This document shows positions 14,713 through 33,366 of a DNA stretch of 64,000 bases, piece by piece (positions within the stretch are counted from its first letter, which is position 1; every line of letters starts with the position of its first letter). A program made the translations under genes and the position numbers. Below the pieces are notes generated by a model that was not told the DNA's origin, searched no databases, and saw only the letters and a program-made list of their open reading frames with translations. This DNA comes from an uncultured Phycisphaeraceae bacterium (GTDB lineage Bacteria; Planctomycetota; Phycisphaerae; UBA1845). The DNA lies in NCBI GenBank assembly GCA_964526695.1, contig CAZGJA010000091.1:82036-146035 (forward strand), given 5' to 3'.

Positions 14713-14724
14713 AAGGAGCGACCT

Positions 14725-14955
14725 ATGAAGACGATGACGTTTGAAGCGATCGAGTTCGATTCGGCCCATGAGGCCATCCAGCACTACTACGCCAGCGGCC
14801 ACGGCGACCGGGTGATCCAACTCGGCGGCAAGGCCTACCTGACCACGGAGGCGGAGGCCGAGCGCCTCGCCGCGGCGGGCGTCGAGTTCGCCTACGTCTT
14901 CGACCACGACCTGCCCGACGGGCGCAACGTGATCATGACCGTGCCGGTGAACTGA
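14725..14955 (+). CDS. Hypothetical small phage protein (76 aa)
   Basis: AAAGGAG SD. Confidence 0.5.
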   Translation: MKTMTFEAIEFDSAHEAIQHYYASGHGDRVIQLGGKAYLTTEAEAERLAAAGVEFAYVFDHDLPDGRNVIMTVPVN

Positions 14956-15036
14956 CCGCGACCCGAACGCGAGCGCCCTACGGGGCGTCAGCGCCCGGGC
15001 CGCATGGGGCGGCTCGAGGTTGAAAGGAGGAACGCG

Positions 15037-16038: not shown

Positions 16039-16041
16039 GTC

Positions 16042-16440: not shown

Positions 16441-16561
16441 CCTCACGTACCCGCCTCCGACACCTCGGCCGACACCGGGGTGTTTCTCCGGCAACAGAGC
16501 AAAAACCAGCGAGCGCGATATACTTGAGGCGGAGCGCCTGCACCTTCGGGGGAAAAGTCGA

Positions 16562-17201: not shown

Positions 17202-19430
17202 TCATCGCATGTTCTCCTCGCGGGGTTTCATGGAGATCGGCGAGGCGCCGGTGCGTTCCAGGACGGCGGGCTTGCCGGTGAAGCGCTGAAAGCGATCACA
17301 GATCACATCGCAGTAGAGCGGGTCGAGCTCCATCAAGAACGCCCGCCGTCCCGTCTGCTCGGCGGCGATCAGCGTGCTCCCCGAACCGCCGAAAAGGTCG
17401 AGCACGTTCTCGCCAGGCCGCGATGAATACTGCATCGCCCGCACCGAAAGTTCGGCAGGTTTCGCCGTCAAGTGTTCCATCTGCTGGGGGTTGATCTTCT
17501 TGACGTGCCAGAGGTCGGTCGCATTGTTCGGGCCGAGGTAGACGTGCGCCGCGCCCTCGCGCCAGCCGTAGAAACAATTGTGGGTTACGATGCCGTCCGC
17601 GACATAGTGCTCACCGATCGGCACGCCGAGGGAATAGACGTCTCCCGCGTGGTGTTGAACCTCGACGCTCTCGATCGGGCACCATTCGCTCCGCAACCGT
17701 GGCCTCTTGACCGGAACCAGCATCAGCCCGGGGATGAGGTTGCAGGCGCGCACCTGCATTCCCACCCGCCGCCCGAACTTGTCGCGCGTGTCGCCGATGC
17801 GGAGGATCGGATAGTGCGGGTGGCGTTGGAAGGCCGCGAGAGCCGCCAGTGCGCCCTCCTCCATGCGCCGCAGATCCAACTTCTCGTACAGGGCCGCGAT
17901 CTGGTCCGGCTGCCGCTGCTCCTTACGGGCCGGCCCGTAGCCAGGCTCCCAGTAGGTCGTCGGGATGCCGAACCGTACGGATACAGCCTGCTCTTGGACC
18001 ATCGCGTCCACATTGGACGCGTGGACGCTCAGGATCCATGCCTCCTCGGCCTTCTCCTTGGCCAGGCGCTGCTTCGGACCGAGCCCCCAGGTGGTGAGCA
18101 TCTTGGACTTGCCGACGCGCCACCAGTCCCCGCGGCGCATCAAGTAGACACACCACCAGTCCGCAAGGGCTTGGGAGAATCGTACGGTCCAGTGGTGGCC
18201 GGCCGTGCACCACGTGGCCTTCCCAGCGGCGCAGACGTTGTAGAGCAGGCCGTTGTAGACCCGGCTCGTCGCCATCACGGGTACGCCGCGTTTGGCCTGA
18301 AGGAAGTAACTGCGCGAGGCGTCAAACCCGACAACCCGGTCATGGGTCCTCATGGCCTCGATCGAGGAGTAGCCGTCAGCAGTCAAGACCTGCGTGCCGG
18401 CCGGCTGACACCACTCGTGGGCACCCATGAAATCCTTGCGCGTCAGGACCGGATGCTGCTTGTCCCAGATGATCGCCTGCGAAAAGTACAGCCCCACAGC
18501 CTTCAGCACCGGCGGGTAGTTGCCGCAGTTGGCGTAGCCGCCCCAGATGTAGAACCCGCGCCCGGGCAACAACACGCGCGCCATGTTGCCGAACCAGGCG
18601 AGGAGCATTTCGTCGAAGGCCTCGTCTGAAACGAAGTCGTTGAGCAGCGGCCGGTCCTTAGGGCGAAGCTGCGCGTGCGTGGCCTGCTTCGGTCCCTGAC
18701 GCGCCACATCGAAAGCCTGGTGATGATGCAGGCCCTTGTCGCCGCGCGCGGCATCGACGGCCTGGGTCAGATGCTGGTTCTTCATCAGAGAAAATGAACT
18801 GTTCCCTGCGGCAATCGCGTTGTTGCTGCGCGGCTCGACCTTCACGTTGTAGGGGGGGTCTGTATTTACCAAGTGGATCGGCGCGCCGTCGAGCAGCCGG
18901 TCCACGTCGGCCACGGACCCGCTATCACCACACATCAGTCTGTGCTCGCCGAGAATCCAGACGTCGCCGGGCTGGGTGACCGCTTCATCGGGCGGAGCCG
19001 GCACGTCGTCCGGATCAGTCAGACCCGCCTTGATCTCTCCGCCCATGAGCTTGGCCAGCTCGTCCTGATCGAACCCCAGCAGCGACCAGTCGATGCCGGC
19101 GCCCTGAAGGTCGGCCAGCTCAATCGGCAACAGCTCCAGATCCCACGTCGCCAGCTCGTTCGTTTTGTTGTCGGCGATGCGGTACGCGCGAATCTGCTCC
19201 GGCGTCAGATCCCGCGCGACATGCACCGGCACCTCGGTCAGCCCGAGCTTCTGCGCGGCCTTCCAGCGCGTGTGCCCGCAGATGATGACGCCTTCGCCAT
19301 CGATGACGATGGGCTGGCGGAACCCGAAGCGACGGATCGACTCTGCGACCGCGTCCACGGCGGCATCGTTGTCACGCGGGTTCTTGTCGTACGGTCTGAT
19401 CGATGAGAGCGGGCGCAGTTCTACCTGCAT
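17202..19430 (-). CDS. ParB-like nuclease domain fused to N4/N6 DNA methyltransferase, interrupted by an intein
   Basis: The start is the internal ATG at 19428..19430 (GGGAGG SD), giving MQVELRPLSSIRPYDKNPRDNDAAVDAVAESIRRFGFRQPIVI (ParB N-domain). Methyltransferase motifs are NTDPPYN, SQAIIWDK, HEW/CFYGW and LDLFGGSGST. The Hint domain lies between HEW and CFYGW. Confidence 0.85.
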   Translation of the reverse strand: MQVELRPLSSIRPYDKNPRDNDAAVDAVAESIRRFGFRQPIVIDGEGVIICGHTRWKAAQKLGLTEVPVHVARDLTPEQIRAYRIADNKTNELATWDLELLPIELADLQGAGIDWSLLGFDQDELAKLMGGEIKAGLTDPDDVPAPPDEAVTQPGDVWILGEHRLMCGDSGSVADVDRLLDGAPIHLVNTDPPYNVKVEPRSNNAIAAGNSSFSLMKNQHLTQAVDAARGDKGLHHHQAFDVARQGPKQATHAQLRPKDRPLLNDFVSDEAFDEMLLAWFGNMARVLLPGRGFYIWGGYANCGNYPPVLKAVGLYFSQAIIWDKQHPVLTRKDFMGAHEWCQPAGTQVLTADGYSSIEAMRTHDRVVGFDASRSYFLQAKRGVPVMATSRVYNGLLYNVCAAGKATWCTAGHHWTVRFSQALADWWCVYLMRRGDWWRVGKSKMLTTWGLGPKQRLAKEKAEEAWILSVHASNVDAMVQEQAVSVRFGIPTTYWEPGYGPARKEQRQPDQIAALYEKLDLRRMEEGALAALAAFQRHPHYPILRIGDTRDKFGRRVGMQVRACNLIPGLMLVPVKRPRLRSEWCPIESVEVQHHAGDVYSLGVPIGEHYVADGIVTHNCFYGWREGAAHVYLGPNNATDLWHVKKINPQQMEHLTAKPAELSVRAMQYSSRPGENVLDLFGGSGSTLIAAEQTGRRAFLMELDPLYCDVICDRFQRFTGKPAVLERTGASPISMKPREENMR
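17577..18410 (-). other. Intein (278 aa) within the methyltransferase gene
   Basis: Begins with Cys (tgt at 18408..18410) as CQPAGTQVLTADGYS. Block B is TAGHHW. Block F/G is DVYSLGVPIGEHYVADGIVTHN, followed by +1 Cys. Extein junctions reconstitute the conserved methyltransferase HEW-CFYGW region. Confidence 0.75.
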
Positions 19431-20018
19431 GTTGGACCTCCCTGTCCGGAGCGCATCATGTTCCCAACGGCCACGGTATCGCGGCCATCTGCGATTCAAC
19501 CCCAACCGGGGGAATTCCGGTTTTCCCGGAACGGCCACGGCTGGCCTCTGGGGCGTCCGTGCCGAGCCGCGTACGCACGGCCAACCCGCGGCCCGCGTCG
19601 CCCCAGGGCGGCCCGGATCGCGTCGTGGGGCCTCCTGGGCCGGCGAAGCACCCAACCAAAAGCGGACAGGGGGTTGTCCGGTCGTAACTCTTTATTCCCT
19701 CGCGTCTTATGGAAAAACCGGACAGCCGAAAGAAAGTCATTCGATAAGCAGCGCTGTTCCCGCTGGCATTTTCGCAGTATTACTTCACGAAGGAACCATT
19801 GCTTACTCGCGCACAACTCGTGCGAGAGGTTCAAGGGGAGTCGGCGACCAACTTTAGAATCGGTTCCATGCTAACGCTTGCGAGCACGTGTCTCCCGACG
19901 TGAGCCAATGACTGATGGCCCGCCAGCCCTTGGGCCGTGAGCTCCCGTTCGTGTAGAATTCCCCCTAGGCGTGGGCCCGCCGGAGGCGCCTTCGGACCGG
20001 AAGGAGGAGAGCTAACAG

Positions 20019-22346
20019 ATGGCTCGTCAACGTTGTGATCGACCAGGATTGTGGGCTTGGCTTTGGTTTGTCACTCTTGCCTTCGCGATTGACGGTTCTA
20101 GTCGCGCTTCACCATCGGATTGCTTCACCTGGGTCGAGGCCACTCCGGGTCCTCGTCCCAGACGGGAACACGCGACCGCGTTCGATACGAATCGAGAGGT
20201 TTTGGTCCTCTTCGGCGGGTGGGATGGTGACGTTAGTGGCGAGACCTGGGAGTACGACGGAACCTCCTGGGCGCTACGATCGACCACCGGGCCTTCCCCA
20301 CGGCGCTTTCACGGGATGGCCTTCGATTCCAACCGCGGCGTCACAGTACTCTTCGGTGGATCGAATGCCGCCGGCGGACGTAATAGCGAGACCTGGGAAT
20401 GGAACGGAGAGTCTTGGAGCCTCGCCTCTTCCACTGGACCTTCACCGCGCGACAAGCATGCGATGGCTTACGATTCACAACGTAGCGTAACCGTGCTAAC
20501 CGGTGGACACGACGGGGAGACGAATCGGGAAACATGGGAGTGGGACGGAGAATCGTGGATCCTCCGTGCGACCGATGGAATTGACCCCGTCCGGGAGCAT
20601 GCGATGGCTTACGATAGTCGGCGAGCTGTCGTCGTACTCTATGGAGGACGAAGCAGCGGCTATTACCAGCACACGCTTGAATGGGACGGCAGTCGATGGC
20701 ACCTCCGCACATTCGATGGGCCGAACAGTCGCGCCAATCACACGATGACTTTTGACCAGGAACGAGGAGTTACTGTCCTCTTTGGTGGAGAGGTGCAAAG
20801 CAGGCGACTAGGTGATACTTGGGAATGGGACGGCGAGACCTGGCGACGAGTGGCCGAAGAAGGTCCAACACCTCGGCGATCGGCTTCAATGTCTTACGAC
20901 TCCGCGCGCCGACAATGCCTGTTATTTGGTGGTTTTGACGGAAACGACTCCGGAGAAACTTGGGCGTGGCGCGGTGAGCAATGGTCCCTCGATCATTCCT
21001 CGGGTCCACCGTCCCGTTATGGCGCTGCAATTGCCTATGACGAGTCTGCTGAGGTATCCGTTTTGATGGGTGGCGGTACGGCCACCCGGGTGCTTTCCGA
21101 CACTTGGGTCTGGAACGGCGTGGTCTGGAGACAAGCAGTCCAGAACGGACCCTTCGAACGCATATACCCCGAGATGGCGTATGACTCTTGGCGCTCCCGT
21201 GTTGTCCTATTCGGCGGGCGTGATGGGTCCTCACAGGACAAAGCTGAAACGTGGGAATGGGACAATTCGGAGTGGACATTTCGGACAACGTCCGGACCGT
21301 CGGCGCGCTACGATCACGCGATGGCGTTCGACAATCGTCGAAGAGTGACGGTGTTGTTCGGCGGCAACGTTGGCGGTCGTGAAACATGGGAGTGGGATGG
21401 GAATGATTGGTTGCGTGTGGCTACAACAGGTCCATCAGCGCGCCGTGGTCATGCCATGGCCTTTGATGAGCGTCGAGCTGTGACTGTCCTGTATGGAGGG
21501 AACTTCAGCTCACGAGAAACGTGGGAATGGAATGGCAGTCAATGGCATCTGGCCTCCAGCAGCGGACCGACCCCGCGTATCGATCACACGATGGCCTATG
21601 ATCGTGACCGCGAGGTCGTGATGCTCTTCGGCGGAAATGACGGGGGATTCGACAACGAGACGTGGGAATGGGATGGAGAAGTCTGGCGGCGACGAACAGG
21701 GCCCAGTCCGGACGGCAGACGCAGTCCGATCATGGCCTACGACTCCGGCCGTCGTCATCTCGTCCTCTACGGCGGGCTCAAAGAGTCCGGGGACACGGCA
21801 GGTGATACCTGGGAATCGAGTAGCCTTGCCGGGCCCGAGTTTCAGGAACATCCCGTTGATGTGCAGAGCGATCCCGGAGATGATGTCGTGCTGAAGGGAT
21901 CGGCTTTCGGCGCTGAAGATTATCGGTGGACAAAAAATGGAGTCGACGTCGTTGATGGCGATCGCATCATCGGATCCAGAACGCCGATTCTGACGCTTCT
22001 CAATGTCGAGCCAGGTGACGGAGGTCGCTACGCTCTTCGCGCGTCAAATGAATGCGATACGTCGACCAGCCACGACGCTCTCGTATGGGTCGGCGACGTA
22101 GCCTGCGAAGACATCCATCGCCTTTCGGCCAGATGTCATCGCGAGAAAGTTGTCGTCACGGTTTTTCTAAATTCTCTCGCCTTTGACGGCCAGTCGGTCG
22201 TTGTCGCAGCGGGTGAGTTCAAACGCACGCTGCAGATCATAGGCAACAGGGCGCGCGGAAAGTTAAAGAATCCAGAAACGTTCGACTCCATTTCAATCTA
22301 CACCCCTGCCGACTGTGGGATTGAAACAACAGTCGATTGTGAGTGA
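20019..22346 (+). CDS. Secreted Kelch-repeat beta-propeller protein with C-terminal Ig-like domain (775 aa)
   Basis: GGAAGGAGGAG SD. The signal peptide is MARQRCDRPGLWAWLWFVTLAFAIDGSSRA. There are at least 12 repeats of the form FGG...ETWEWDG..W. The Ig-like segment is VLKGSAFGAEDYRWTKNG...GRYALRASNECDTS. Confidence 0.8.
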   Translation: MARQRCDRPGLWAWLWFVTLAFAIDGSSRASPSDCFTWVEATPGPRPRREHATAFDTNREVLVLFGGWDGDVSGETWEYDGTSWALRSTTGPSPRRFHGMAFDSNRGVTVLFGGSNAAGGRNSETWEWNGESWSLASSTGPSPRDKHAMAYDSQRSVTVLTGGHDGETNRETWEWDGESWILRATDGIDPVREHAMAYDSRRAVVVLYGGRSSGYYQHTLEWDGSRWHLRTFDGPNSRANHTMTFDQERGVTVLFGGEVQSRRLGDTWEWDGETWRRVAEEGPTPRRSASMSYDSARRQCLLFGGFDGNDSGETWAWRGEQWSLDHSSGPPSRYGAAIAYDESAEVSVLMGGGTATRVLSDTWVWNGVVWRQAVQNGPFERIYPEMAYDSWRSRVVLFGGRDGSSQDKAETWEWDNSEWTFRTTSGPSARYDHAMAFDNRRRVTVLFGGNVGGRETWEWDGNDWLRVATTGPSARRGHAMAFDERRAVTVLYGGNFSSRETWEWNGSQWHLASSSGPTPRIDHTMAYDRDREVVMLFGGNDGGFDNETWEWDGEVWRRRTGPSPDGRRSPIMAYDSGRRHLVLYGGLKESGDTAGDTWESSSLAGPEFQEHPVDVQSDPGDDVVLKGSAFGAEDYRWTKNGVDVVDGDRIIGSRTPILTLLNVEPGDGGRYALRASNECDTSTSHDALVWVGDVACEDIHRLSARCHREKVVVTVFLNSLAFDGQSVVVAAGEFKRTLQIIGNRARGKLKNPETFDSISIYTPADCGIETTVDCE

Positions 22347-22794: not shown

Positions 22795-22880
22795 GGAGAA
22801 AGAGAGAAAGAAGAAGAGAAGTAGTAGTATTTATATATATTTTCATGCATTCTTCTTTCACTGTTCCTTCACCTTCCTTC
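22795..22880. promoter_or_regulatory. AT-rich purine/pyrimidine mirror-palindrome island in the convergent intergenic space next to the primase 3' end
   Basis: gagaaagagagaaagaagaagagaag-tagtagtatttatatatattttcatgcatt-cttctttcactgttccttcaccttccttcc. The GA-rich arm is complementary to the TC-rich arm around an AT-rich core. The surrounding DNA is about 68% GC. Confidence 0.5.
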
Positions 22881-25292
22881 CACGCCTTCGCTCTCCAGCC
22901 GGTACAGCGTGCGGGGCCGCCCCTCGGTCGCCAGGGCGTCGATCGCCACGTCGCCGCGCTGGACGAGCGTCTCGATCAGCTCGCGGAAGCTCTTGGCGTC
23001 AATCTTCATGCGTTTGAGCAGTACGTGGTGCGGGAGGGTCCGGTCCGGGGCATCCCGCAGCTTCTTGAGCAGCCGCAGGCAATGGGCATGGAACGGGTTG
23101 TCGGCCACGTGGCCGGCGGCCTGGTACAGCATCCGCCGGACCTGATGGGTGACCAGCCGTGAGGCCCAGCGGGCGGCCTGCGCGCCGATGCGCGGCTCGC
23201 GGTGGTTCTCACTGACGGCGTAGACCAGGGCGAGCTTGCGGGCCTGCTCGCTGACGCGACCCCAAACCGTGGTGCTAACGGCGTCCTGGGCGGACTGGGC
23301 CCTGTTGTACTCGGCGTCAGCTTCCTCACGGGTTTCGGCAAGCAACCGTCGCGCGTCCTCCGAATGCTCGACGACGGCCGGCGATGGATGAGATTCCGCC
23401 AGATTCCCGGCGCCGGCCCGGAACTCCGCCCACCATTTCGCGGTATCGAGGATGCGCGAGGGCAGCTCGCGGATCGACGATTCCTGACCGCGGCGCTGCT
23501 GACCGGCCTCCAGGATGAGCATGCGGGCGAAGAAGCCGTTGGTCAGCATCCGCTCGGAGAGGGCCTCGTAATAGTGGTTGGGGATGGCCGTACCGAAGAG
23601 GACCAGGCACGGCTGGTCGATGACGCCGGGGTAGTCCTTGCCGGCCTTGCGGCGCATGGGGTAGACGCTGTTCGATGAGGAATACAGCGTCAGCAGCGTG
23701 CTCATCATGGTCTCGTAGCGGGCGTCGCGGGCCTTGTTGATCGACTGCAGGATGCCGTCGATCTCGTCGGTCTGCACGAGCATGGCCGGATCGGCGAACA
23801 GCGCGTCCTGGACGGCCTCGCCCGAGGCCATGCGCTCGCCGAGGCATCGTGTACAGCCCACGGCGTTGAGGATCTGTGTGTTGACTTTCCGCGGCGCATC
23901 CTTGCCGGCCGAGGAATGGGCCAGGGCCAGGACGTAGATGTTGGTCCGATTGTCGCCGGGGTCGCGCACCTTGCGCCCGGCCAGGAACGCCTGCAGCGCC
24001 AGCGCGCCGCCGAACGCCAGGGCTTGATTCGGGTACGGGGCGCTCTCTAGGCAGTAGTCCATCACCTCGCCGATGAAGCCGGGAATCCGCAGAAGCTCGT
24101 TGGGAATCGGCCCGGGATCGGGAGGCTGGATGTCTCCGGGGCCGGCCGGCGCATCGCGCGGTCGGACGCTGAAGCTGGACAGATCTACGTCACCGGAGTC
24201 GACGGGCGGCGGCTCCCAGCCCGGGTCCAGCGCTTTCCGAAGATCATGCCACGTGTACGCCTGCCCGCGGCTGTGCTTGTTGCAGTAGGCCAGCTTGCCG
24301 TTGTTGCCAATAAGAACGGCGATGTCGGAGCCGCCCGTGGAGACGATCTCGGGATCGATCGGGCAGCGTTCGAGTAGAAGCAGCGTCTTGTTTCCGTTGC
24401 GGCGCTCGCCCTTGACAGCCACGCCGCGTCCTTCGAGCCAGGCCCGCACGCCTGCGGGAGTGCAATCGAAACGAGCAGCGTCACTGGCGGGCACGACCGA
24501 GGCCCGTGGTGCGTCGGCGTGGACCCTTGCGGTTTCGGCTACGGTTCGTAGCAGATCTTCAGGCACGACAGCGAGCGTGCCGGGAATGTCGATGAATTCG
24601 GATCGCCGATGCGGACGGTCCTCAAGGCCGGCGACACCGCGCAGCTCATCCCCCTTGCGCGCCGTGGTTCCGACGATCTTGACGATCCGCGCCGCGTTAT
24701 GAACGGAACGATCGACTGCCACATGGCCGTCGCTGAAGCGATCGGCGAGCGCCGCCAGGATGGCCTTCACCAGGCCGCCGTCATCGGCAGGAAGGTTGAT
24801 GCGATAAAGAAGGTGAAAGCCGTTCCCCGACATCACCTGGAGGGGATCGGGCCAACCGATCGATCGCAGGTGGTCTGAGACGCAGCGGGCGCGCTCGTGC
24901 GCCTGCGCCAACTCAGCTTCCGTGGAGCTGATGCCGGCGGGCCGGACCGGGTCCACGTCGATGAGCAGCCAGCGCCGCAGGACGACGTCCTTGTCCGAGG
25001 TGGTCTCGCGGACCCTGGACTTTATACGGTTCGCGGCGCGAGCCAACAGCGCCGGGGCGACGGGGCTCATCGTCACGTACATACCCGGCGCGATCCTCGA
25101 CTGATCCAATTCGGCAATCGCGGCGACGGCTGCATCCAGGGTTTCGTGAGTGAAATACCCACTGCACGTAACGGCGTAGCGCGCATCCTTGCGTTCGCGG
25201 CATTCCGGCGCGCGAACCTCGAACACGTCCCCCGGCTGAAACAGCAGGGAGAGGAAGGCGCGGATCGCAGAGGTATCCCCGGAGTGCTTCAT
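22869..25292 (-). CDS. Phage replication primase-polymerase (Prim-Pol N-domain) with DUF3987-like helicase-associated C-domain
   Basis: LLIDVD and VMSGNGFHLLYRIN motifs are present. The large C-terminal region contains a P-loop-like segment. ATGA overlap with the upstream helicase. Confidence 0.75.
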   Translation of the reverse strand: MKHSGDTSAIRAFLSLLFQPGDVFEVRAPECRERKDARYAVTCSGYFTHETLDAAVAAIAELDQSRIAPGMYVTMSPVAPALLARAANRIKSRVRETTSDKDVVLRRWLLIDVDPVRPAGISSTEAELAQAHERARCVSDHLRSIGWPDPLQVMSGNGFHLLYRINLPADDGGLVKAILAALADRFSDGHVAVDRSVHNAARIVKIVGTTARKGDELRGVAGLEDRPHRRSEFIDIPGTLAVVPEDLLRTVAETARVHADAPRASVVPASDAARFDCTPAGVRAWLEGRGVAVKGERRNGNKTLLLLERCPIDPEIVSTGGSDIAVLIGNNGKLAYCNKHSRGQAYTWHDLRKALDPGWEPPPVDSGDVDLSSFSVRPRDAPAGPGDIQPPDPGPIPNELLRIPGFIGEVMDYCLESAPYPNQALAFGGALALQAFLAGRKVRDPGDNRTNIYVLALAHSSAGKDAPRKVNTQILNAVGCTRCLGERMASGEAVQDALFADPAMLVQTDEIDGILQSINKARDARYETMMSTLLTLYSSSNSVYPMRRKAGKDYPGVIDQPCLVLFGTAIPNHYYEALSERMLTNGFFARMLILEAGQQRRGQESSIRELPSRILDTAKWWAEFRAGAGNLAESHPSPAVVEHSEDARRLLAETREEADAEYNRAQSAQDAVSTTVWGRVSEQARKLALVYAVSENHREPRIGAQAARWASRLVTHQVRRMLYQAAGHVADNPFHAHCLRLLKKLRDAPDRTLPHHVLLKRMKIDAKSFRELIETLVQRGDVAIDALATEGRPRTLYRLESEGVEGR

Positions 25293-26968
25293 CAGAATGG
25301 ACAGTCGTCCGGACGGACGGACGCCGGTGCTGGAACTTGTTCCTCCTCCGAATCCGGGCGAGGGGGTTTCTCGCCCAACCGATAGGCCACAACGTGGTCG
25401 AACTTCTCGCCGGGCTTATGCTCGACGGTCACGCTGAGCGTGAGCGCCACGGCACCGGCATGCGAGAAATCGACGGCGTCCTGGGCGGTTGCGGGTATCG
25501 GGTCGGGCGACCGAGCGCGCCACCAATGCTCGGCCTTCTGGCGCGCGAAGCCTTCGTGCTCGAAACACACCCATTCGCTGACGTACTCATTGAACCCGAC
25601 GCGGTAGTCCACGCGCATCGTCCGCGGCGCATCCGTCGGCGCGCCGCGCTTTGTGTGGACGCTGTAGAACACATCAGTGACTTCGTGCTCGGTGCGCGTA
25701 ATCTGGTCGGAGAGGATGCCTTCGGAAGACGCGGTGGATGCGTGCTTCTCGCGCTCGCGCGGTGGGAACGCGTGCCCGCACGCCGGACAGGTTGTGTAGC
25801 CCGCGGCGATCAGCTCGAGACATTGGGGGCATTCCTTGGCTGGGGCATCGCCGTTGCCGCTGTAATTAGATTCGGTGACGCGCATCGCATCGACGGGCCC
25901 GTGACGCAGGACGTTTCCGCCGAAGTCAAGGACCAGGGCATCGGTTTTGCCCGGGTGCAACCGGAACCCACGCCCAACCATCTGGTAGAAGAGACCCGGC
26001 GACATCGTCGGACGCACCAGCGCCACGCAGTCGATGTTTGGCGCGTCGAACCCCGTCGTCAGCACGTTGACGTTGCACAAGTACTTCAGCTCGCCGCCGC
26101 GGAATCGCTTCAGCGTCACATCACGTTCGAACGGTAACGTCTCGCCGCAAACAAACCCGCACTCCAGGCCGTGACGCTCACCCAATACGCGGCAGATATG
26201 CTCGCCGTGGCGCACGCCGCTGGCGAAAATCAGCACGGACCTGCGGTCCTGCGTGTGCTCGATGATCTCGCGGCAGGCGCCCAGGACGAGGTTGTCGTCG
26301 TCCATGAGCTGCTCGACCTCATTGGCCATGAACTCGCCGGCGCGGACGTGGAGCCGGTCGGTGTCGGGCTTGAGGCTGCCGGCCTTGGTGCGCAGCGGGC
26401 ACAGGTAGCCCTGTACGATGAGCTCGCGGACGCTGATCTCGTAACAGATGTGGTTAAGGACGTTGTCCGGCGCGCAGATGGTGCCGGACTTCATGCGGAA
26501 CGGTGTCGCCGTCAGGCCGACCACACGCACGTTGGGGTTGATGACCTTCAGATCCGCCAGCAGCGTGCGATACATTCCTTCGCCATCGGGCGCAATGAGA
26601 TGGGCCTCGTCGACGAGGATCAGGTCGACAGGCCCGACGTCGCAGGACTTCTCGTACACGGACTGAATGCCAGCGATGGTGACCGCGTAGCCTAGATCCC
26701 GGCGCTTCAGCCCCGCAGAATAGATGCCCAAGGGCAGATCGGGCGCGGTGGCGCGCAGCTTCTCCTCGGCCTGCTCCAGCAGCTCCTTCACGTGCGCCAG
26801 GATAAGCACCCGCCCGTTCCAGACCTGCACCGCGTCGCGGCAGATCGTAGCCATCACCGGCGTCTTGCCGCCGGCGGTGGGGATGACGACGCAGGGGTTG
26901 TCGTCGCGCTCGCGCAGGTGCGCGTACACCGCATCGACAGCCTCACGTTGATAGGGTCGGAGGATCAA
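25292..26968 (-). CDS. DEAH-box SF2 helicase with C-terminal zinc ribbon
   Basis: Helicase motifs YQREAV, PTAGGKT, DEAH, TATP and QMVGRGFR. Zinc ribbon CPQCLELIAAGYTTCPACGH. Confidence 0.85.
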   Translation of the reverse strand: MILRPYQREAVDAVYAHLRERDDNPCVVIPTAGGKTPVMATICRDAVQVWNGRVLILAHVKELLEQAEEKLRATAPDLPLGIYSAGLKRRDLGYAVTIAGIQSVYEKSCDVGPVDLILVDEAHLIAPDGEGMYRTLLADLKVINPNVRVVGLTATPFRMKSGTICAPDNVLNHICYEISVRELIVQGYLCPLRTKAGSLKPDTDRLHVRAGEFMANEVEQLMDDDNLVLGACREIIEHTQDRRSVLIFASGVRHGEHICRVLGERHGLECGFVCGETLPFERDVTLKRFRGGELKYLCNVNVLTTGFDAPNIDCVALVRPTMSPGLFYQMVGRGFRLHPGKTDALVLDFGGNVLRHGPVDAMRVTESNYSGNGDAPAKECPQCLELIAAGYTTCPACGHAFPPREREKHASTASSEGILSDQITRTEHEVTDVFYSVHTKRGAPTDAPRTMRVDYRVGFNEYVSEWVCFEHEGFARQKAEHWWRARSPDPIPATAQDAVDFSHAGAVALTLSVTVEHKPGEKFDHVVAYRLGEKPPRPDSEEEQVPAPASVRPDDCPF

Positions 26969-26973
26969 GTACG

Positions 26974-27684
26974 ATGCTCCGGCGGTGTCCTGCGATGAGT
27001 CAGTTGCCCGATGACATTTCGTATGAGCGATGGGTCGAGCACGTGTTCAATCACCCGGTTCTTGACCCGGCGTGGTACTTCCACCTCGATAGTGAACACG
27101 AAGAAGAGTGGGATTCGAAGGCCGATCCGGCCCGAACCCTGGCCCACCTGACGTGTCTGTTCCGGCAGCCGGCGTTTCTGATCAGACGGTTTTCGTGCGC
27201 GCAGATCGACCAGGGGCTCGGGTATCTGGTCTCCCCATCCTGCTCGAGCCACATGTTCTCGCTGTTGGAGACCTCGATCCCGTGGGAAGAACGTCGCGAA
27301 TGCATCGAGGCTATGCACACGCTCTATTCGGAGCTGATGGCCCCCACGTACGGCGATGTCCTGGGGCACCTGGAAAACTCGACGACGCCAGAGTTGCCTC
27401 ACAACGCCTGCTACATGTGGTGGGATGTTATTCCGTTGTATGGGGGCATGAAGCACGCCGATCGGGACCAGATCAAGGATGCGGTCCTGCACGTGTTCTC
27501 CAAAACACTCAAGCTCACTTCGGAGGCCTGTTTGGAAAGCGTTCTTCACGGCTTGAGTCACTGGCGTATGTATGCACCCGATCTAACCGAACCGATTGTG
27601 CGGACGTTTCTCAAGTCGCGGCCAGCGATCTCCGCGGCTTTGCGTCGCTATGCGAAGCATGCTGCGATGGGACTTGTTCAATAG
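26974..27684 (+). CDS. Hypothetical W/Y/H-rich protein (236 aa), divergent from the replication operon
   Basis: GGAGGA SD 10 nt before ATG 26974. Non-shadow composition (YMWWDVIPLYGGMKHADRDQ). No recognisable family. Confidence 0.4.
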   Translation: MLRRCPAMSQLPDDISYERWVEHVFNHPVLDPAWYFHLDSEHEEEWDSKADPARTLAHLTCLFRQPAFLIRRFSCAQIDQGLGYLVSPSCSSHMFSLLETSIPWEERRECIEAMHTLYSELMAPTYGDVLGHLENSTTPELPHNACYMWWDVIPLYGGMKHADRDQIKDAVLHVFSKTLKLTSEACLESVLHGLSHWRMYAPDLTEPIVRTFLKSRPAISAALRRYAKHAAMGLVQ

Positions 27685-28003
27685 CGCCGGAATCCGCAGT
27701 AAAAAGAGGGTTCGCTGGTAAACCAGCCGGTACTGGCTGATCCTCGTTCGCGTGCTTCCGCAGCCGCTCCGGCACCAGCAGGCTCAGGAGCTCCTCGCGC
27801 GTGCCCATGTGCCGCAGCAACCGCTTGCCCGCGTTGCGCAGCGCGACCTCCACGTCATTGAAGACATCCATCGCCTGCTGATCGTGTACCCGCTCGCTGC
27901 GCGTGGCCGGCCGCTTCTCGAACCAGTCAGCGACGACCACGTAGCGCAGCGCCGCGCCGATCAGCTCATTCGCAAGCACGTTGGGATCGACAGGCTGGTG
28001 CAT
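27611..28003 (-). CDS. Hypothetical phage protein (130 aa)
   Basis: Taken from the internal ATG (28001..28003) of ORF 27611..28384. Upstream of that ATG the frame is Arg-rich and overlaps rusA. Confidence 0.3.
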   Translation of the reverse strand: MHQPVDPNVLANELIGAALRYVVVADWFEKRPATRSERVHDQQAMDVFNDVEVALRNAGKRLLRHMGTREELLSLLVPERLRKHANEDQPVPAGLPANPLFTADSGAIEQVPSQHASHSDAKPRRSLAAT

Positions 28004-28347
28004 GGCATGACTTCGAGACTTACATCCACTCGCCCGCCCGACGCCACCTCGCCGCGTTCGACGAGCAGCCGATCGATCTGCTCGTCCGTGACGAACACCC
28101 CGGCGTGCTGCAGGGCGTCCAGCACCGCCTTCAAACGGTTGTCGATGTCGAACTTGCGCCCATCTGGCGGATGAAGAACAAGCCGAACATCGAGCCGGCC
28201 GCCAAGCGGCGGGGCGCGGTAGCCGACGAGGGCACGGGTAACCGCCTCGCGGTACGCGCGACCCTCGCGGCTCAGCAGCATCCGACCGCGCCACGTCCGC
28301 CAATAGTGGTTCACGCTCGGCGGCCAGGGCAGCGCCAGTTCGATCAT
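27961..28347 (-). CDS. rusA: RusA-family Holliday junction resolvase
   Basis: LPWPPSVNHYWR...DIDNRLKAVLDALQHAGVFVTDEQI is the RusA signature. Confidence 0.75.
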   Translation of the reverse strand: MIELALPWPPSVNHYWRTWRGRMLLSREGRAYREAVTRALVGYRAPPLGGRLDVRLVLHPPDGRKFDIDNRLKAVLDALQHAGVFVTDEQIDRLLVERGEVASGGRVDVSLEVMPCTSLSIPTCLRMS

Positions 28348-28410
28348 CCGTAATCTCCATTGAGCATCCGTGCTCGCAGTCCACTTGCGCTGCCCCGGCG
28401 CACCGATCGA

Positions 28411-28866
28411 CTACCGCTGCCAGGGCGCTTTCCCGTTGGTGGAAGCGAACACCGGCTTGGGCGCGGCCGCGTCCTTGCGTTCGTAGCCGGTGATGACGTT
28501 GGCCATCTCGCCGGTGTCCTTGCGCTTCTTGAGCCCGAGCGCGATGACCAGCGGGATGTTGTGCAGCTCGATGCTGTCCTTGGGCGCCAGGATCCCCACG
28601 GCGCGGCAGATCGCCGACAACTCGCTGCGCGCGATCCTCACCGTGGTGGCGTTGGCGTTGTCCAGGTTAAGCCGCGTCCACACCACGCGGCCCTTGTTGT
28701 CGCCTTCCAGTATCTGGAGCGTGAGCTGGAGGTACTGCGCGCCCCCGGTCTTGGTGGGCTTCATCTGGCTCTCGGTGATCACCGCCAGGTACTTGCCCGC
28801 GGGAATCGGCGGGAATGAGAAGTTCGGGTCGACTTCTTGAGCGTTGAATCCATTCAGGTTCGGCAT
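28411..28866 (-). CDS. DUF669-like phage ssDNA-binding protein
   Basis: MPNLNGFNAQEVDPNFSFPPIPAGKYLAVITESQMKPTKTGGAQYLQLTLQILEGDNKGRVVWTRLNL is the DUF669 pattern. DUF669 is typically adjacent to Sak4. Confidence 0.55.
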   Translation of the reverse strand: MPNLNGFNAQEVDPNFSFPPIPAGKYLAVITESQMKPTKTGGAQYLQLTLQILEGDNKGRVVWTRLNLDNANATTVRIARSELSAICRAVGILAPKDSIELHNIPLVIALGLKKRKDTGEMANVITGYERKDAAAPKPVFASTNGKAPWQR

Positions 28867-28869
28867 GGG

Positions 28870-29652
28870 TTACTCTCCTTGCGTTTGCGGGTCTTCAGTC
28901 GTTGTGGCCGGCACTTCACCGCGCACATACGCGGCGAAGATGCGGTAATCCAATGGAATCTCGTCGGGCAGGCCGAGGCGGTTCTTCGCCACGTGCGCCG
29001 GGCGCTCCGTCGTGCGGAGGATGCGCTCGCCCTGGCCGATGCCCTGGACGCGCAGGCGATCGAACGCTTCCTTCGTGGTCTTGGTGTGGACCTTGTACGT
29101 GGCGAAGAGCACCTCGTCGCACCACTGCTGGACCAGCGCTGAGGCCAGCTTCTGGAGACGCGGGCTATAGCGGTCGTAGGTGTCGGTCTCGGGATTGGCG
29201 AACTTCTCGATCTGGGCATGCGCCAGCAGGACGATCGTCATCCCCCGCTCGTTGCGCAGGGCGTCGAAGCCCTGAAGGATCTCGCGCCACTGGGTGAGCG
29301 CGAACACGTAGCTCTTCCCGTAGGGGATCTCCTCCATGCTCTTGACGCCGTGGGCCTCGCAGACGTCGACCCAGATGAGCCGCTCGAGCCAGTCGAGGCT
29401 GTCGACGACGAGCGTGCGAAAGGTGTGCTCTCGCGTGAACAGTTCACCGAGCGCCGCCAGGACGTCGCGGTAACGCAGCGCGAGAGGGAAGCGCTGACAA
29501 TCGATGTGCGCCAGGCCATCTTCGGTCTGGATGAAGATCGGGGCTTCGGCCATCGAGCCGAAGGTCGATTTTCCAATGCCTTGTGTTCCATACAGCAGCA
29601 CGCGCCGCGGCGCCACCACCTTTCCGCTTTGAACCTGATCCATCAAACTCAT
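28870..29652 (-). CDS. Sak4-like RecA-fold ATPase (AAA_24)
   Basis: Walker A LLYGTQGIGKSTF. Walker B VVDSLDWL. Phage recombination-module context. Confidence 0.7.
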   Translation of the reverse strand: MSLMDQVQSGKVVAPRRVLLYGTQGIGKSTFGSMAEAPIFIQTEDGLAHIDCQRFPLALRYRDVLAALGELFTREHTFRTLVVDSLDWLERLIWVDVCEAHGVKSMEEIPYGKSYVFALTQWREILQGFDALRNERGMTIVLLAHAQIEKFANPETDTYDRYSPRLQKLASALVQQWCDEVLFATYKVHTKTTKEAFDRLRVQGIGQGERILRTTERPAHVAKNRLGLPDEIPLDYRIFAAYVRGEVPATTTEDPQTQGE

Positions 29653-29758
29653 GCTCTTGCCTCCTTCTGATTACCCTGTGAATCCGGGCCCGAAGCCGAC
29701 GGGGTCCCGTCCCGTCCATGGGACACCGACGCTTAAGCCGCCCGCTTCGGGCCCGGAG

Positions 29759-30592
29759 TCACAGGCGCTCGATCAACCTCAGCCCCTCGAACCGCGTGAA
29801 CCAGTTGCCTGTCTCGCGGCAGACCTTCAGATCGCGCAGGGCGTGTTCGTTTTCGAGCTGCGCCTCATCCAGCGCGCGCGGCGCGAGTTGCCAGACGCCG
29901 CCGCGGAAGGGCTCGCGCTTCTCGATGGCCACGATGTGCGCCGGGAGGATGCGCCCGCTGACCCGCGCAACGAGCACGCGGTAGAACGCGACCTGGTGGA
30001 CGTAGCCGAAGGCGCGGATCGCCGCCTCAAACGTGTCGATCTCGTCGCAGGTCTTGAGGTCCACGATCCCCCGGCCGGGAACGGGATTGACCCAGTCGAT
30101 CCGCGCCTGGCAGCGATGCCCGGCGTATTCGCAGCGCACCACGCCCTCCGCGACACCCTCGGAAAACAGTTCCCTGGCGAAGAGATGCTCGCGCACCGCC
30201 GCGGCCATCTGCTCGACCAGCGCCGCCTGCGCATCGCTGAGCACGGGCTTGCTCTGCTTCCCGGCCCATGCGGCAAACGCATTGCTGTTCGATCGGAAGG
30301 GCTTGCCCGTCTTGGCGTTGACGGGTCCGCCGAAGGCGAACTCGCGCTCGTAGCGCTGCCGGCCTTCGAGAATGAGCGTGTGTCCCGCGCGCCCCACGAG
30401 GTAGAACGAGGCGTCGCGTTTGCCGACCAAGCCCAGCTCCATGCGGTGGTAGAGCCGCGGGCAGAGACGAAAGTCCCGCAGCGCATGGGACGTCACGTGG
30501 TCCTTCGCCCTGGCGTGGTAGACCTCCGCCGGCTCGCGAAGGAGGAAGCGCAGGTCGAGTCGGCTCGCGTCCCCTTGAAGCGTGGTGCTCAT
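29759..30592 (-). CDS. PD-(D/E)XK family nuclease (phage exonuclease/Cas4-like)
   Basis: Taken from the internal ATG 30590..30592 (GGAGG SD). RIDWVNPVPGRGIVDLKTCDEID is D...DLK-type. The upstream part of the track ORF is Arg-rich shadow. Confidence 0.55.
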   Translation of the reverse strand: MSTTLQGDASRLDLRFLLREPAEVYHARAKDHVTSHALRDFRLCPRLYHRMELGLVGKRDASFYLVGRAGHTLILEGRQRYEREFAFGGPVNAKTGKPFRSNSNAFAAWAGKQSKPVLSDAQAALVEQMAAAVREHLFARELFSEGVAEGVVRCEYAGHRCQARIDWVNPVPGRGIVDLKTCDEIDTFEAAIRAFGYVHQVAFYRVLVARVSGRILPAHIVAIEKREPFRGGVWQLAPRALDEAQLENEHALRDLKVCRETGNWFTRFEGLRLIERL

Positions 30593-30951
30593 AGACCGGC
30601 CTCCGTAAGCTCCCGCTCGGCGACGTCGTGCGGAGCGAGGCGCTGGCGCAGCGCGTGGGTGTCGATCCGCAGGGGTGGCGCCTCCCGGCGTCGGTTCTGC
30701 TCGACGACAAACTCCGCAATCCACGGGCGACTGGTGTAGAAGCGCCGCCCGATCGACACGTAGCGCAGCTTCACCGTGCCGTGAGCCACGCCCTTGCTGC
30801 ACCAGCGCCAGATCACCGGTCGCGAGGGGCGCTTCCCGCGATGGTTCTTGGGAAAGAGCTTGGCAGCGCTGTCGAGGTCGATAAGGTCTTCCACGGGGGG
30901 GTCGATGGAAAGCCCCGTGTCCAGACCCGGTTCTCGTTGATGAACACTCAT
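30589..30951 (-). CDS. HTH_17/excisionase-like DNA-binding protein
   Basis: LIDLDSAAKLFPKNHRGKRPSRPVIWRWCSKGVAHGTVKLRYVSIGRRFYTSRPWIAEFV is a MerR/Xis-like wHTH. ATGA overlap with the nuclease gene. Confidence 0.5.
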   Translation of the reverse strand: MSVHQREPGLDTGLSIDPPVEDLIDLDSAAKLFPKNHRGKRPSRPVIWRWCSKGVAHGTVKLRYVSIGRRFYTSRPWIAEFVVEQNRRREAPPLRIDTHALRQRLAPHDVAERELTEAGL

Positions 30952-31169
30952 GTTCTCGCACCTGCCTTTTTTCCACGCCTGCGGGCCTCATCGTCCGAGG
31001 TCCGCGAACCCCGGTCCCTCTACCCAAGGGCGTGGTGGTGCATGGGTGGTGCACTCGGTGGTGCAGGCGACGCTCAAACCACGGGCTTTTCTCCGGGGAA
31101 AACCACAATGGAGTGGTGCACGAGTGGTGCATTCGGTGGTGCATGCACCACTTTTGCACCACCTTGGGG
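30952..31169. promoter_or_regulatory. Iteron/operator-like array: 6 direct plus 2 inverted copies of GTGGTGCA
   Basis: ggtggtgcatg, ggtggtgcac, ggtggtgcag (31033..31064). gagtggtgcac, gagtggtgcat, ggtggtgcatg (31112..31143). Inverted tgcaccac copies at 31144..31162. The array lies between the HTH regulator gene end and the xis-like/nuclease operon start. Confidence 0.6.
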
Positions 31170-31742
31170 TCAGGCACCGGTGTCGTCCGGTTCCTCGAGA
31201 GAAGGGTAAGGGCGGGATCGACTCGCAGGCCGCTCCCGAACAGCCATTCGTCGGGCCCGCTGGATTTCCGCCCAGCGACCGACGGTGGTGTGGTGCACGC
31301 CCAAGGCCTCGGCGATCTGCCGGTTGGACCATTCGGGATGATCGCGCACGAGGATGATCGCCCGGCTGACCAACACGGCCTTCGGTTCACGCTTGCAGGG
31401 CGAATGGCGCTGCGCACGCGGCGGAGGGGCCTGGTCAGGATCCAGGCAGATCGTGGACGGGATCTCGGTGACGCCCTGAGCCCGGTGTTGGCGGTATTCC
31501 GCCTCGGGGATCAGCCGGGGACGGCCCTCCTGGTCGACGACGGGGACGAAAGGCAACTCGCCGCTCAACACCGCACGAAGGGTATTCGCGGCTGCCGAAT
31601 CAGGGCTGGAAACGACGATGGAAGCGTCGGCCGATGGCCGCGGGTCCGGCGTAGGCTGCGTCGATCCGCGCGCATAGTCGCTGGGGTTCATGATCGTGCT
31701 TGACCGTTGGCCGCAGCGCGCCTCCCTGCGTCGCGATTCCAT
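31170..31742 (-). CDS. HTH-containing phage regulatory protein
   Basis: AIILVRDHPEWSNRQIAEALGVHHTTVGRWAEIQR is a helix-turn-helix. The start is uncertain (ATG 31742 or 31691). Confidence 0.45.
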   Translation of the reverse strand: MESRRREARCGQRSSTIMNPSDYARGSTQPTPDPRPSADASIVVSSPDSAAANTLRAVLSGELPFVPVVDQEGRPRLIPEAEYRQHRAQGVTEIPSTICLDPDQAPPPRAQRHSPCKREPKAVLVSRAIILVRDHPEWSNRQIAEALGVHHTTVGRWAEIQRARRMAVRERPASRSRPYPSLEEPDDTGA

Positions 31743-31854
31743 GCCCCACTGCGGCGGATCAAGACTCCGGCGGGGAACGAGCGATTGCCCATTCGTCTTA
31801 TGTTAGGTTAGCGTTCGGGCGGATCGGAATCAAGCGCTTTTCAAAGTCATTTCA

Positions 31855-33087
31855 TCATCCGATAACTGTGGCGATCTGCTGGGCCTTTTCCATGTCGCGC
31901 TCAGCGTAGACCGCCTCGGTGACCAGGGCGCTGCTGTGGCCCAGGAGAATCTGCGCGGCCTCCAGGCCGTACTTTTTCCGAATGTCAGTGGCGTAGTTGT
32001 GCCTCAGCTGGTGGGGGTGCCAATGAGGCACACCAGCCTTGGTGCATCCGTAGTCGATGGCGCGGCGGTAGTTCGCTGTGTCGTAGCCGGCCCCCGGAGA
32101 CCGTCTCGGCTCAGTCTTGCAATTCGTGCCAGGGCGATTACCGCAGGAAAGTGGAGTCTTACGGGCTGCGTGGCGGCTCGTTCGGTGCCAGTCCACAGCC
32201 TCGCAAGGACTGAATATGAAAGAGTCGGTTGCCTTTCCGGCGAGGAATCGTTTGATAATCCCCTGCGCCTTGGGACCCAGATAGATCGTGCGTTGCTTGC
32301 CGTGGTAGGAAGTTTTGTGCTCGCGCGGCTCATACAACCACACCTTGCCTGACATGTTGATATCGCAAGGACGGATCCTGCAAACTTCTCCGGACCGCAT
32401 CCCGGTCAACAGCTGAAGGTTTATCATGGCAGCCACTGGAGGCGCCACGACTTTGCGCACCGCAACGACGTGATTCAGGTCGGCAGGGAGGACTCTTCGT
32501 CCCTCGCGGACATCGGTGGAACCGCGCCGCAAAGGCTCAAGAGTTCTCAGCGATTGATAGACGGTGACCGGCAGGAACTCGCGCGAAGCCGCCCACTTGA
32601 AGATCATCCGGATCCGCCCAACCATGTGATTCGTGGTGCTTCGAGACCACGCGATTCGAGGACGCTTTCCTCCTTGATCCGCGATCAGCATGCTCTGGCG
32701 CACAAGGCGCAGGGCGTTGGGTCCGAACGAGGCTGCCGGCGTTTCGCCGAACATCCTGCGTAAGAGCCGTATAGCCATCTCGAAGGCACGTTGCTCACCT
32801 GATACGTATCGCGGAACCACCTCCTCTCGAAACGCATGACACACTTGTGACACCGTCGGTCCGTGGGCCGACGAGCGATCGATCTGCGCACGAGAGAGCC
32901 GACGCCCGCGTGATTCCCACTCAGCGAGAATCCGTGCAAACTTCTCGCGGCTCTCGGCGCTGCCGAACTCGCCGAGCCAATAATCCCTGATCTTTCTTGT
33001 GTCTTGATCGAAGAGCCGCACATACGCGATGTCGCGTCCGCGGATGGAGCGGTGCCGGTACGCCGGCGGTCGTTGAAGCCTGGCCAT
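31855..33087 (-). CDS. int: Tyrosine recombinase (phage integrase)
   Basis: C-terminal catalytic signature HQLRHNYATDI...LLGHSSALVTEAVY (R..HxxR..Y). Adjacent to the tRNA-Lys 3' end. The start is taken at ATG 33085..33087. Confidence 0.85.
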   Translation of the reverse strand: MARLQRPPAYRHRSIRGRDIAYVRLFDQDTRKIRDYWLGEFGSAESREKFARILAEWESRGRRLSRAQIDRSSAHGPTVSQVCHAFREEVVPRYVSGEQRAFEMAIRLLRRMFGETPAASFGPNALRLVRQSMLIADQGGKRPRIAWSRSTTNHMVGRIRMIFKWAASREFLPVTVYQSLRTLEPLRRGSTDVREGRRVLPADLNHVVAVRKVVAPPVAAMINLQLLTGMRSGEVCRIRPCDINMSGKVWLYEPREHKTSYHGKQRTIYLGPKAQGIIKRFLAGKATDSFIFSPCEAVDWHRTSRHAARKTPLSCGNRPGTNCKTEPRRSPGAGYDTANYRRAIDYGCTKAGVPHWHPHQLRHNYATDIRKKYGLEAAQILLGHSSALVTEAVYAERDMEKAQQIATVIG

Positions 33088-33198
33088 GAGTCGAATCTCC
33101 GAAAAGGGGAGCGCGCTCCCCCAATTTTCGAGCGATTCGCCACATCGGCCTTGAAGGCAGGTTGACGCAACGTGCGTCACTGGCGTGAGTTACAACAC

Positions 33199-33271
<73 letters not shown>

Positions 33272-33366
33272 AAGGATAAGAGCGGGGCAGTTTAGCAGGG
33301 CGGGCGGCGGTTTCAAGCGCCGGCGATGGAGAAAGCAACCGTCGGATCCGTGGCACTTTTGGCGGC

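Follow-up and report, generated by a model that had tools for sequence, protein, structure and literature searches.

A two-part repeat array behind a helix-turn-helix gene in a planctomycete prophage as a candidate cooperative operator

Introduction

What is the function of eight identical octamers packed between two co-directional genes of a prophage, and which protein reads them? The question is raised by a stretch of 64,000 nucleotides (the window) from an uncultured Phycisphaeraceae bacterium (contig CAZGJA010000091.1, positions 82,036 to 146,035), in which the repeats lie between the gene of a helix-turn-helix (HTH) protein and a gene of the DUF1580 family that opens the recombination and replication operon. 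The array recurs, with other words, behind related HTH genes, and the way in which its words change favours the HTH protein as the reader. How genes are regulated in the phages and integrative elements of planctomycetes is virtually unexplored. The array and the HTH gene offer a concrete candidate for a regulator-operator pair at the boundary between lysogeny and early genes of a prophage.

The kind of element is a known one, as it works like a phage operator or an iteron array, and as a binding site built of repeats it is only a moderate conceptual surprise. The protein family, the position of the array past the stop codon of a regulator that is co-directional with its putative target operon, and the conserved two-block lattice with changing words were not found described in the literature, family database and records that we searched. 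Phage and plasmid records searched by BLAST with the region and with the HTH module returned nothing; DUF1580, like the module, is absent from these collections and from NCBIfam, and no relevant report was found in the literature on DUF1580 or on prophage regulation in planctomycetes.

The repeat array

Exact matching places eight copies of GTGGTGCA within 128 bp (31035-31162), six on the plus strand (starting at 31035, 31046, 31058, 31113, 31124 and 31136) and two on the minus strand (31144-31151 and 31155-31162), which bears out the six direct and two inverted copies described in a first-pass annotation of this DNA. The two groups, placed there about 70 bp apart, are in fact separated by a gap of 47 bp (31066-31112), or by 55 bp from the last start of one group to the first start of the next. 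In the whole window there are 14 copies of the word against 2.12 +/- 1.62 expected from dinucleotide-preserving shuffles, the shuffle maximum being nine; none of 100 shuffles reached 14. By our own arithmetic about 0.004 copies are expected per 128 bp, where eight are seen, which marks the array as non-random. The six copies outside the array are all isolated (18206, 31290, 40019, 57003, 59339 and 61201). Additional clusters, which the annotation proposed to seek in the rest of the prophage, were not found in the window, even with one mismatch allowed; the prophage extends past the left window edge and this search covers the part of it inside the window. The copy at 31290-31297 is intragenic: within the HTH gene it supplies the Val-His-His codons with which the recognition helix begins. 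It was considered as a ninth site and rejected, as these codons explain it and no relative has it; it is probably due to chance, because the relatives use CAT CAC, which does not create the word.

The array fills the intergenic region 30952-31169, which is bounded by two minus-strand genes, and the order HTH gene, array, DUF1580-nuclease-recombination operon is as first annotated. Read in the direction of transcription, two inverted copies come first, with the distal group beginning 7 nt past the stop codon of the HTH gene, and the direct copies then start at 0, 12, 23, 78, 90 and 101 bp. Start-to-start spacing within each triplet is thus 11 and 12 bp, and the two triplets together form a direct repeat of 34 nt, 88% identical, at a distance of 78 bp. 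All six direct sites fit, within 1 bp, positions 0, 1, 2, 7, 8 and 9 of a lattice with a period of 11.2 bp (own arithmetic). The second inverted copy and the first direct copy make up a perfect 16-bp palindrome, GTGGTGCATGCACCAC. The proximal copies begin 38, 26 and 15 nt upstream of a conserved box, TTGGGTAGAGG, which may be either a promoter element or the site of a second protein.

Conservation of the array in related loci

Diverged versions of the locus are found on four short assemblies, the DUF1580 and HTH proteins both being rare. The intergenic regions of these close relatives (L004, L006/L008 and L009) align with the window column by column, and the word in them is (A)TTC[A/G]CCA, not TGCACCAC. 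All copies have changed together and in place, as is expected for a protein and its sites that evolve together. Despite the change of word the TTGGGTAGAGG box is invariant in the window, L004, L006 and L009; relative to it, all four lineages have the last two repeats at precisely -26 and -15, and two of them have a third at -37/-38. The six sites of L009 (0, 12, 24, 88, 99 and 110) fit positions 0, 1, 2, 8, 9 and 10 of an 11.0-bp lattice (own arithmetic).

The motif GGGTAGAGG occurs also directly past the stop codon of the module protein P0032 (L028, 1606-1616) and ahead of a start codon in L020 (about 1176-1184).

Wider loci were retrieved solely through homology to the HTH module of the upstream protein, with a subset of six sequences, as the alignment of 19 modules was too diverse for locus scanning. 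This gave 13 further distinct loci (L010 (= L014), L011, L015, L016, L019-L027 and L029), two of them from metagenome-assembled genomes (MAGs) of Phycisphaerae and Planctomycetaceae; L012, L013, L017 and L018 were discarded as false or unrelated matches, and a module scan of IMG/VR returned no loci. A two-part array abuts the stop codon of the module gene in 16 of 16 distinct relatives, its start lying between -29 and +23 nt from that codon in the loci fetched through the module. The word [CT]GCAA[CT][GA] is present in 61 copies in the 1.8 kb that follow the stop codons (150-bp windows) versus 46 in the other 39.5 kb, a 29-fold enrichment (per-locus P from 4e-3 to <1e-10 in 12 CGCAAC-type loci).

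Spacing is more constant than the word itself. Starts are 12, 55/56 and 11 bp apart in L010, L011, L015, L019-L023, L025 and L026, and 12, 55 and about 13 bp apart in L029, where the word is GCGCAACC. In L027, the unrelated word CTGACA has all six of its copies in the 6.4-kb locus at spacings of 12, 11, 55, 12 and 11 bp, which are those of the window. Five different words are seen across the loci (TGCACCAC, TTCRCCA, CTGACAC, CGCAACGC and CGCAATG). Between the groups, 14 distinct loci (the window among them) have a gap of 55-56 bp, and L004, L006 and L009 have one of 64-65 bp; the difference is one helical turn, which indicates that phase and geometry are conserved and not the sequence of the spacer. 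The two triplets point the same way in every locus, window and relatives alike, and inverted copies stand only at the distal edge. These results strongly support the view that the array is one instance of a rigidly spaced, probably protein-binding, two-part array of planctomycete phages and integrative elements. Of the three roles first proposed for it (repressor operators, cooperative looping sites or origin iterons), a selected array of cooperative geometry has stood up, with 16 other loci and five words, while an origin of the type found in Staphylococcus aureus pathogenicity islands (SaPI) is argued against, as discussed below.

Two blocks of phased repeats are known from other contexts as well. 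In R1 parC and pBtoxis tubC, blocks of iterons phased by 11-12 bp flank a core of about 40-50 bp on one continuous lattice, and the R1 core holds a promoter which is repressed by the binding. The likeness in phasing and in the single lattice raises the question whether the array is a plasmid-type centromere of the parC/ParR or tubC/TubR kind. Here, however, there is no partition nucleoside triphosphatase (no ParM, TubZ or ParA among the annotated neighbours), a ParB_N domain is seen just once, as part of a methylase fusion at a distance of 12 kb, the candidate reader is HTH_23-like and not a ribbon-helix-helix or TubR protein, and the element is an integrated prophage. A terminase pac/cos site would agree with weak Terminase_5 matches in five of 19 modules, but the large terminase subunit is encoded 19 kb from the array. 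Arm-type sites of the integrase are a third variant; against them, integration has left the array whole, at a distance of 2 kb from the tRNA junction, and no match of at least 12 nt links it to the tRNA region. We regard this whole group of explanations as highly improbable.

The protein that reads the words

The first-pass annotation proposed either neighbour of the array as its binder. The one neighbour that all arrays have in common is the module gene. The genes past the array vary: in the window lineage it is DUF1580, in L010, L011 and L021-L024 an open reading frame (ORF) of about 60-70 amino acids (aa) followed by an HTH_17 gene, and in L027 a small ORF, four unrelated genes and then an HTH_17 gene, 2.3 kb from the array. 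The small ORF (..FSVLMHA....L..LG[VI].VRF) is a conserved feature in its own right, being the first past the array in most relatives, but it is missing in the window lineage and matches no family.

Among the neighbours the HTH protein is also the most diverged, with 49% identity between the window and L004, compared with 68% for the nuclease (window vs L004); DUF1580 proteins of the relatives are 76-77% identical to that of the window in full-length alignment and 80-83% in local BLASTP. The putative recognition helix is GVHHTTVGRW in the window and GIHHSTLSKW in the close relatives. Across the loci, helix STLSRSPE[YF] goes with the word CGCAAC[GA]C, STLSKWPE with TTCRCCA, TTVGRWAE with TGCACCAC and PAVLSWPE with CTGACAC, while GTLSRSPEYK of L019, one residue off L016, goes with CGCAATG at all four sites; the L016 helix HPSTLSRSPEYK is paired with CGCAACGC, and the L019 helix HPGTLSRSPEYK with CGCAATGN at all four sites. 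The word tracks changes in the recognition helix, and this pattern favours the HTH module over the DUF1580 protein as the probable reader, the more so as the core of the latter (residues 19-95) is almost invariant among the window, P0002 and P0003 while the word differs. Of the two candidate binders first named, it is thus the upstream one that is favoured. It should be noted that the covariation of word and helix rests on few independent contrasts and that the changes in specificity are small, because the words are interrelated (TGCACCAC, TTCACCAC and CGCAACAC); both points weigh against this assignment.

It is known that recombination directionality factors (RDFs) bind direct repeats about one helical turn apart in a head-to-tail manner, and such repeats are a hallmark of Xis/Cox/Apl-type proteins (PMC7498355). 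The spacing of 11-12 bp on a continuous lattice fits this mode of binding, and a gene of that general type follows the array here and in many relatives (in the window it is the first gene and encodes a small basic protein; in L010, L011 and L021-L024 an HTH_17 gene lies one gene farther), so that the downstream Xis-like protein, DUF1580 here and HTH_17 in relatives, could read the array in the way of the small winged-helix proteins P2 Cox and 186 Apl, which polymerise head-to-tail, and regulate the switch between early and lysogenic expression. The arrays of 186 Apl, P2 Cox and lambda Xis are further alike in the implied cooperative spreading and in their place in the lysis-lysogeny region (PMC7498355). 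These likenesses count against the HTH protein as the reader. Several features do not agree with a Xis-like reader, however. The DUF1580 core does not co-vary with the switch between TGCACCAC and TTCRCCA; in L027, the HTH_17 gene is four genes away and the spacing of the array is still identical to that of the window; the loci were found via the HTH module and not via a Xis-like gene, and the array is in every one of them. Winged-helix RDFs of the Apl, Cox and Xis type bind the attachment (att) site too, but there are no copies or one-mismatch clusters at 31750-33300, by the tRNA and att at the right end of the prophage, where sites of an RDF are expected. In P2 and 186 the promoters are face-to-face, while all genes here are co-directional. 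A reader of this type is in our estimation quite unlikely.

The label 'xis-like', given to the DUF1580 product in the first annotation, is no more than plausible: the only Pfam match of the product is DUF1580 (26 bits), and the AlphaFold2 (AF2) model, with a pLDDT (predicted confidence score) of 56, is of too low quality to be compared with known folds. Two variants of the protein were all that a word-indexed search turned up, and alignment scans of GTDB genomes, JGI metagenomes and IMG/VR added no further relatives.

The HTH protein consists of a disordered N-terminus, a conserved beta-hairpin/helix region and a C-terminal, homeodomain-like module of the HTH_23 class. In isolation the window module scores 27.6 bits against Pfam HTH_23 (gathering threshold 24.6), the full-length protein 24.0 bits, just under the threshold, and all 19 of the family modules tested match HTH_23. 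The structure model has an overall pLDDT of 65, and high confidence is confined to residues 100-152. Sequence searches of the PDB yielded no more than marginal matches to HipB-type HTH proteins. Full-length relatives are limited to P0005 and P0006, to which an exhaustive hidden Markov model (HMM) search added P0007; this search returned 382 proteins at E <= 1e-3, and all but two share only the C-terminal module. The module, about 50-70 residues with the pattern HPEW[ST]D..IA..VG....TLSR.PE[YF]Q.A, is joined to variable N-terminal regions of 0-650 aa, for which Pfam and NCBIfam gave no match, and no NCBIfam family exists for the module proteins. An acidic tail often follows the module; the form GH[IV]T.D.D.G..DIEAY..DPAE.DWD is conserved at many C-termini (L011, L015, L016, L020 and L026), and a C-terminal CxxC...CxxC zinc ribbon is added in the module proteins of L019, L021, L023 and L025. 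Natural variants of one geometry with at least five words may provide a route to the recognition code of this module, and repressor/operator parts, potentially orthogonal, for a phylum whose genetic tools are few.

Function of the array

If the HTH protein is the reader, what would its binding do? The explanation that we favour, and to which we give an even chance, is a cooperative operator for this protein, with sites on a lattice of about 11.2 bp, which would close the early operon to transcription. What the data establish is the array, its non-random occurrence, its constant place beside this gene family, a geometry that is kept while the words change, and the correlation of word and recognition helix; binding by the HTH protein, its cooperativity and the repressive outcome are what we infer. 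Each 8-bp word would take one HTH module, and head-to-tail protomers on both triplets would touch across the 47-bp spacer, either by spreading or because the DNA forms a short loop or wraps. Such a complex, about 110 bp long, would then sit between the integrase/regulator module and the DUF1580-recombination-replication operon. Most likely it would prevent expression of this operon in the lysogen, both by covering a promoter in or near the spacer and by stopping transcription that reads through from the regulator gene.

Immunity operators made from asymmetric or direct repeats are known from phi105, Mu (O1-O2), P1 (C1) and L5 (gp71). Like these, the array repeats a short asymmetric word beside a regulator gene at the head of the early operon, and, as in immunity types, word and regulator change together between related phages. 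Unlike in them, the regulator is upstream and co-directional and the array lies past its own stop codon, the 12-11-55-12-11 lattice is rigid across distant relatives, and the reader belongs to an unnamed family that has no known sensor domain.

Several results weigh against an operator of this kind. A regulator gene co-directional with the operon it should repress is unusual for immunity repressors, and the divergent arrangement of repressor gene and lytic operon seen in the lambda, P2 and 186 type is not found here. The model of the HTH protein is poor outside the HTH, Foldseek matches against the PDB are weak (E >= 0.2), and no recognisable sensor or cleavage domain was found in the protein. 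In the intergenic region of the window neither a sigma-70-like promoter nor a terminator could be located, so that sequence alone does not separate an operator from an activator site, an origin or another role outside transcription. The promoter search covered 30500-31900 and the loci L026 and L027, with no sigma-70-like promoter in any of them, but promoters of planctomycetes are poorly known. In favour of the HTH protein, the prophage ORFs tested included no other candidate for a classical repressor.

The leaders that follow the array tie it to gene expression. From the end of the last repeat to the next start codon there are about 10-55 nt in the relatives and 83 nt in the window, and in seven of 11 relatives a stable hairpin that pairs the Shine-Dalgarno (SD) sequence begins 0-8 nt past the last repeat (z from -2 to -5), which suggests a conserved translational masking of the first gene past the array, as predicted from these folds. 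With such a short distance, and leaders 0-8 nt past the last repeat, transcription of the operon must start in the array or cross it. The hairpins pair the SD (GAAAGGA) with an upstream anti-SD, and the sequence of the stem is unlike in each locus. In the window, the leader hairpin is not significant (z -1.45), no significant RNA hairpin was predicted in the spacer (z +0.8), and an Rfam search gave only a chance match below threshold. Hairpins resembling an intrinsic terminator, with a T-run, lie inside the spacer of L026 (2810-2840) and L027 (3414-3450); as a general feature a spacer terminator was rejected, being absent from the window and most other loci.

The lack of a detectable sigma-70-like -35/-10 pair would also be in accordance with activation. 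Lambda CII activates on TTGC-N6-TTGC repeats, and the HTH protein could turn on the early operon in a similar way, from the proximal repeats over a weak -35. With TAGAGG of the conserved box as a hypothetical -10 element, the proximal repeats would occupy the -35 position, and the protein and its family modules give weak Pfam hints of Sigma70_r4_2 and Phage_CII and weak fold matches to sigma region 4. On the other hand, an activator would have to be kept off in the lysogen by another factor, for which the prophage ORFs tested gave no candidate; the leaders that begin 0-8 nt past the last repeat in relatives would put the -10 inside the repeats, which is typical of repressors; and simple class II activation would require neither the distal triplet nor the inverted pair nor a gap of conserved phase. 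We consider such a role improbable.

A further explanation is that the array is a replication origin, in which the words would be iterons bound by an initiator and the spacer the melting region where helicase and primase are loaded. The genes downstream have replication functions in all cases (helicase/primase here, and AAA_25, DUF3987 or Zn_Ribbon_Prim in relatives), so that the array heads a replication operon, and no dedicated initiator was recognised in the prophage. Octamer iterons are also carried by the P4 origin. Spacers lie on average 8 GC points under the locus mean in 12 of 13 loci, and the layout recalls the SaPI origin, where six to twelve short repeats of element-specific sequence lie directly past the ORF of the DNA-binding reader, half on each side of a centre, and the reader binds through a C-terminal DNA-binding domain (PMC9371898). 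The SaPI iterons are, however, oppositely oriented around an AT-rich centre and their reader is a self-loading helicase (PMC9371898), while here both triplets share one polarity in every locus, the centre is not clearly AT-rich and the candidate reader, of 173-190 aa, has no ATPase domain or known Rep fold. The spacer of the window has 57% GC versus 64% in the whole window (21st percentile among 47-bp windows), those of the relatives 43-62%, with no clear unwinding element. The fixed distance of the proximal repeats from the conserved box and the structured leader, as well as the terminator-like spacer hairpins of two relatives, also argue against an origin, which we hold to be unlikely.

Operator and origin need not be separate. 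The HTH module, the acidic tail and the two-block array could form a portable control cassette of a kind not described before, with naturally diversified pairs of word and helix, in which a filament nucleated on both repeat blocks would close the early promoter and at the same time mark the start of replication by helicase and primase; this combined function is doubtful, although we would not call it far-fetched. The cassette is distributed over mobile elements of Planctomycetota (Planctomycetaceae, Phycisphaerae MAGs and many metagenomes), and a module gene followed by a spaced array may serve as a sequence signature of the control regions of mobile elements in Planctomycetota genomes.

Prophage context

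Coordinates of the features are collected in Table 1. The order is tRNA-Lys(CTT), integrase, HTH protein, array, DUF1580, nuclease, Sak4-like protein, single-stranded DNA-binding protein (SSB), RusA, helicase and primase, and every gene between 33180 and 22869 is read from the minus strand.

Table 1. Features of the prophage and of the intergenic region in the window, and elements past the array in related loci
Feature	Position	Strand	Remarks
tRNA-Lys(CTT)	33198-33272	-	marks right end of prophage together with integrase
Tyrosine integrase	31855-33180 (ORF)	-	
HTH protein, proposed reader	31170-31691 (ORF to 31742)	-	173 aa from Met shared with homologues; 190 aa as ORF
Distal group	31113..31162	-	two inverted copies (31162-31155, 31151-44), then direct TGCACCAC at 31143-36, 31131-24, 31120-13
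Spacer between groups	31066..31112	-	47 bp; imperfect palindrome GGTTTTCcccggaGAAAAGCC and two GTGGTTT motifs
Proximal group	31035..31065	-	direct TGCACCAC at 31065-58, 31053-46, 31042-35
TTGGGTAGAGG box	31017..31027	-	7 nt past last repeat; 65 nt before DUF1580 start codon
Leader, box to DUF1580 start codon	30952..31016	-	purine-rich GGAAAAAAGGCAGG ahead of ATG
DUF1580 protein	30589-30951	-	120 aa; first gene past array; overlaps exonuclease start by ATGA
Co-directional early operon after array	22869..30592	-	
DUF3799/exoVIII-like nuclease	29759-30592	-	
Sak4-like AAA_24	28870-29652	-	
DUF669 SSB	28411-28866	-	
RusA	27961-28347	-	
ORF without assigned function	26965-27561	-	
Helicase	25292-26968	-	
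Primase	22869-25292	-	
Small ORF past array, L010	2560-2772		
Small ORF past array, L011	3365-3571		
Small ORF past array, L022	1008-1220		
Small ORF past array, L027	3510-3689		
Leader hairpin, L011	3335-3372		
Leader hairpin, L015	735-780		
Leader hairpin, L016	2000-2043		
Leader hairpin, L019	2577-2625		
Leader hairpin, L010	2517-2562		
Leader hairpin, L022	964-1010		
Leader hairpin, L024	2848-2886		

Farther to the left lie a ParB-methylase fusion, a gpA-type large terminase and a lambda-type portal (1255-2805), and the full prophage therefore extends beyond the left edge of the window. When the window was searched for att repeats, the tRNA end had no convincing second copy in it; the left end of the prophage lies outside.

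Several other features of the prophage were observed. The ParB-methylase fusion is a protein of 817 aa that joins a ParB N-terminal domain to an N6/N4 DNA methylase (17202-19655). A minus-strand ORF of 1283 aa at 13060-16911 is spurious, as judged from the GC3/GC2 coding signal, and seven small plus-strand genes are present instead at 13573-16440, among them one for a HARE-HTH protein (15004-16038); this block runs opposite to the remaining prophage, in a region of strong AT skew. Two large plus-strand genes (4148-9826 and 20019-22346) have a GC content of 51-59% versus about 65%. One of them, between the portal and terminase genes, encodes an FG-GAP/Laminin_G protein of 1892 aa and the other a Kelch-repeat/Ig protein of 775 aa, and both look like cargo (moron) genes.

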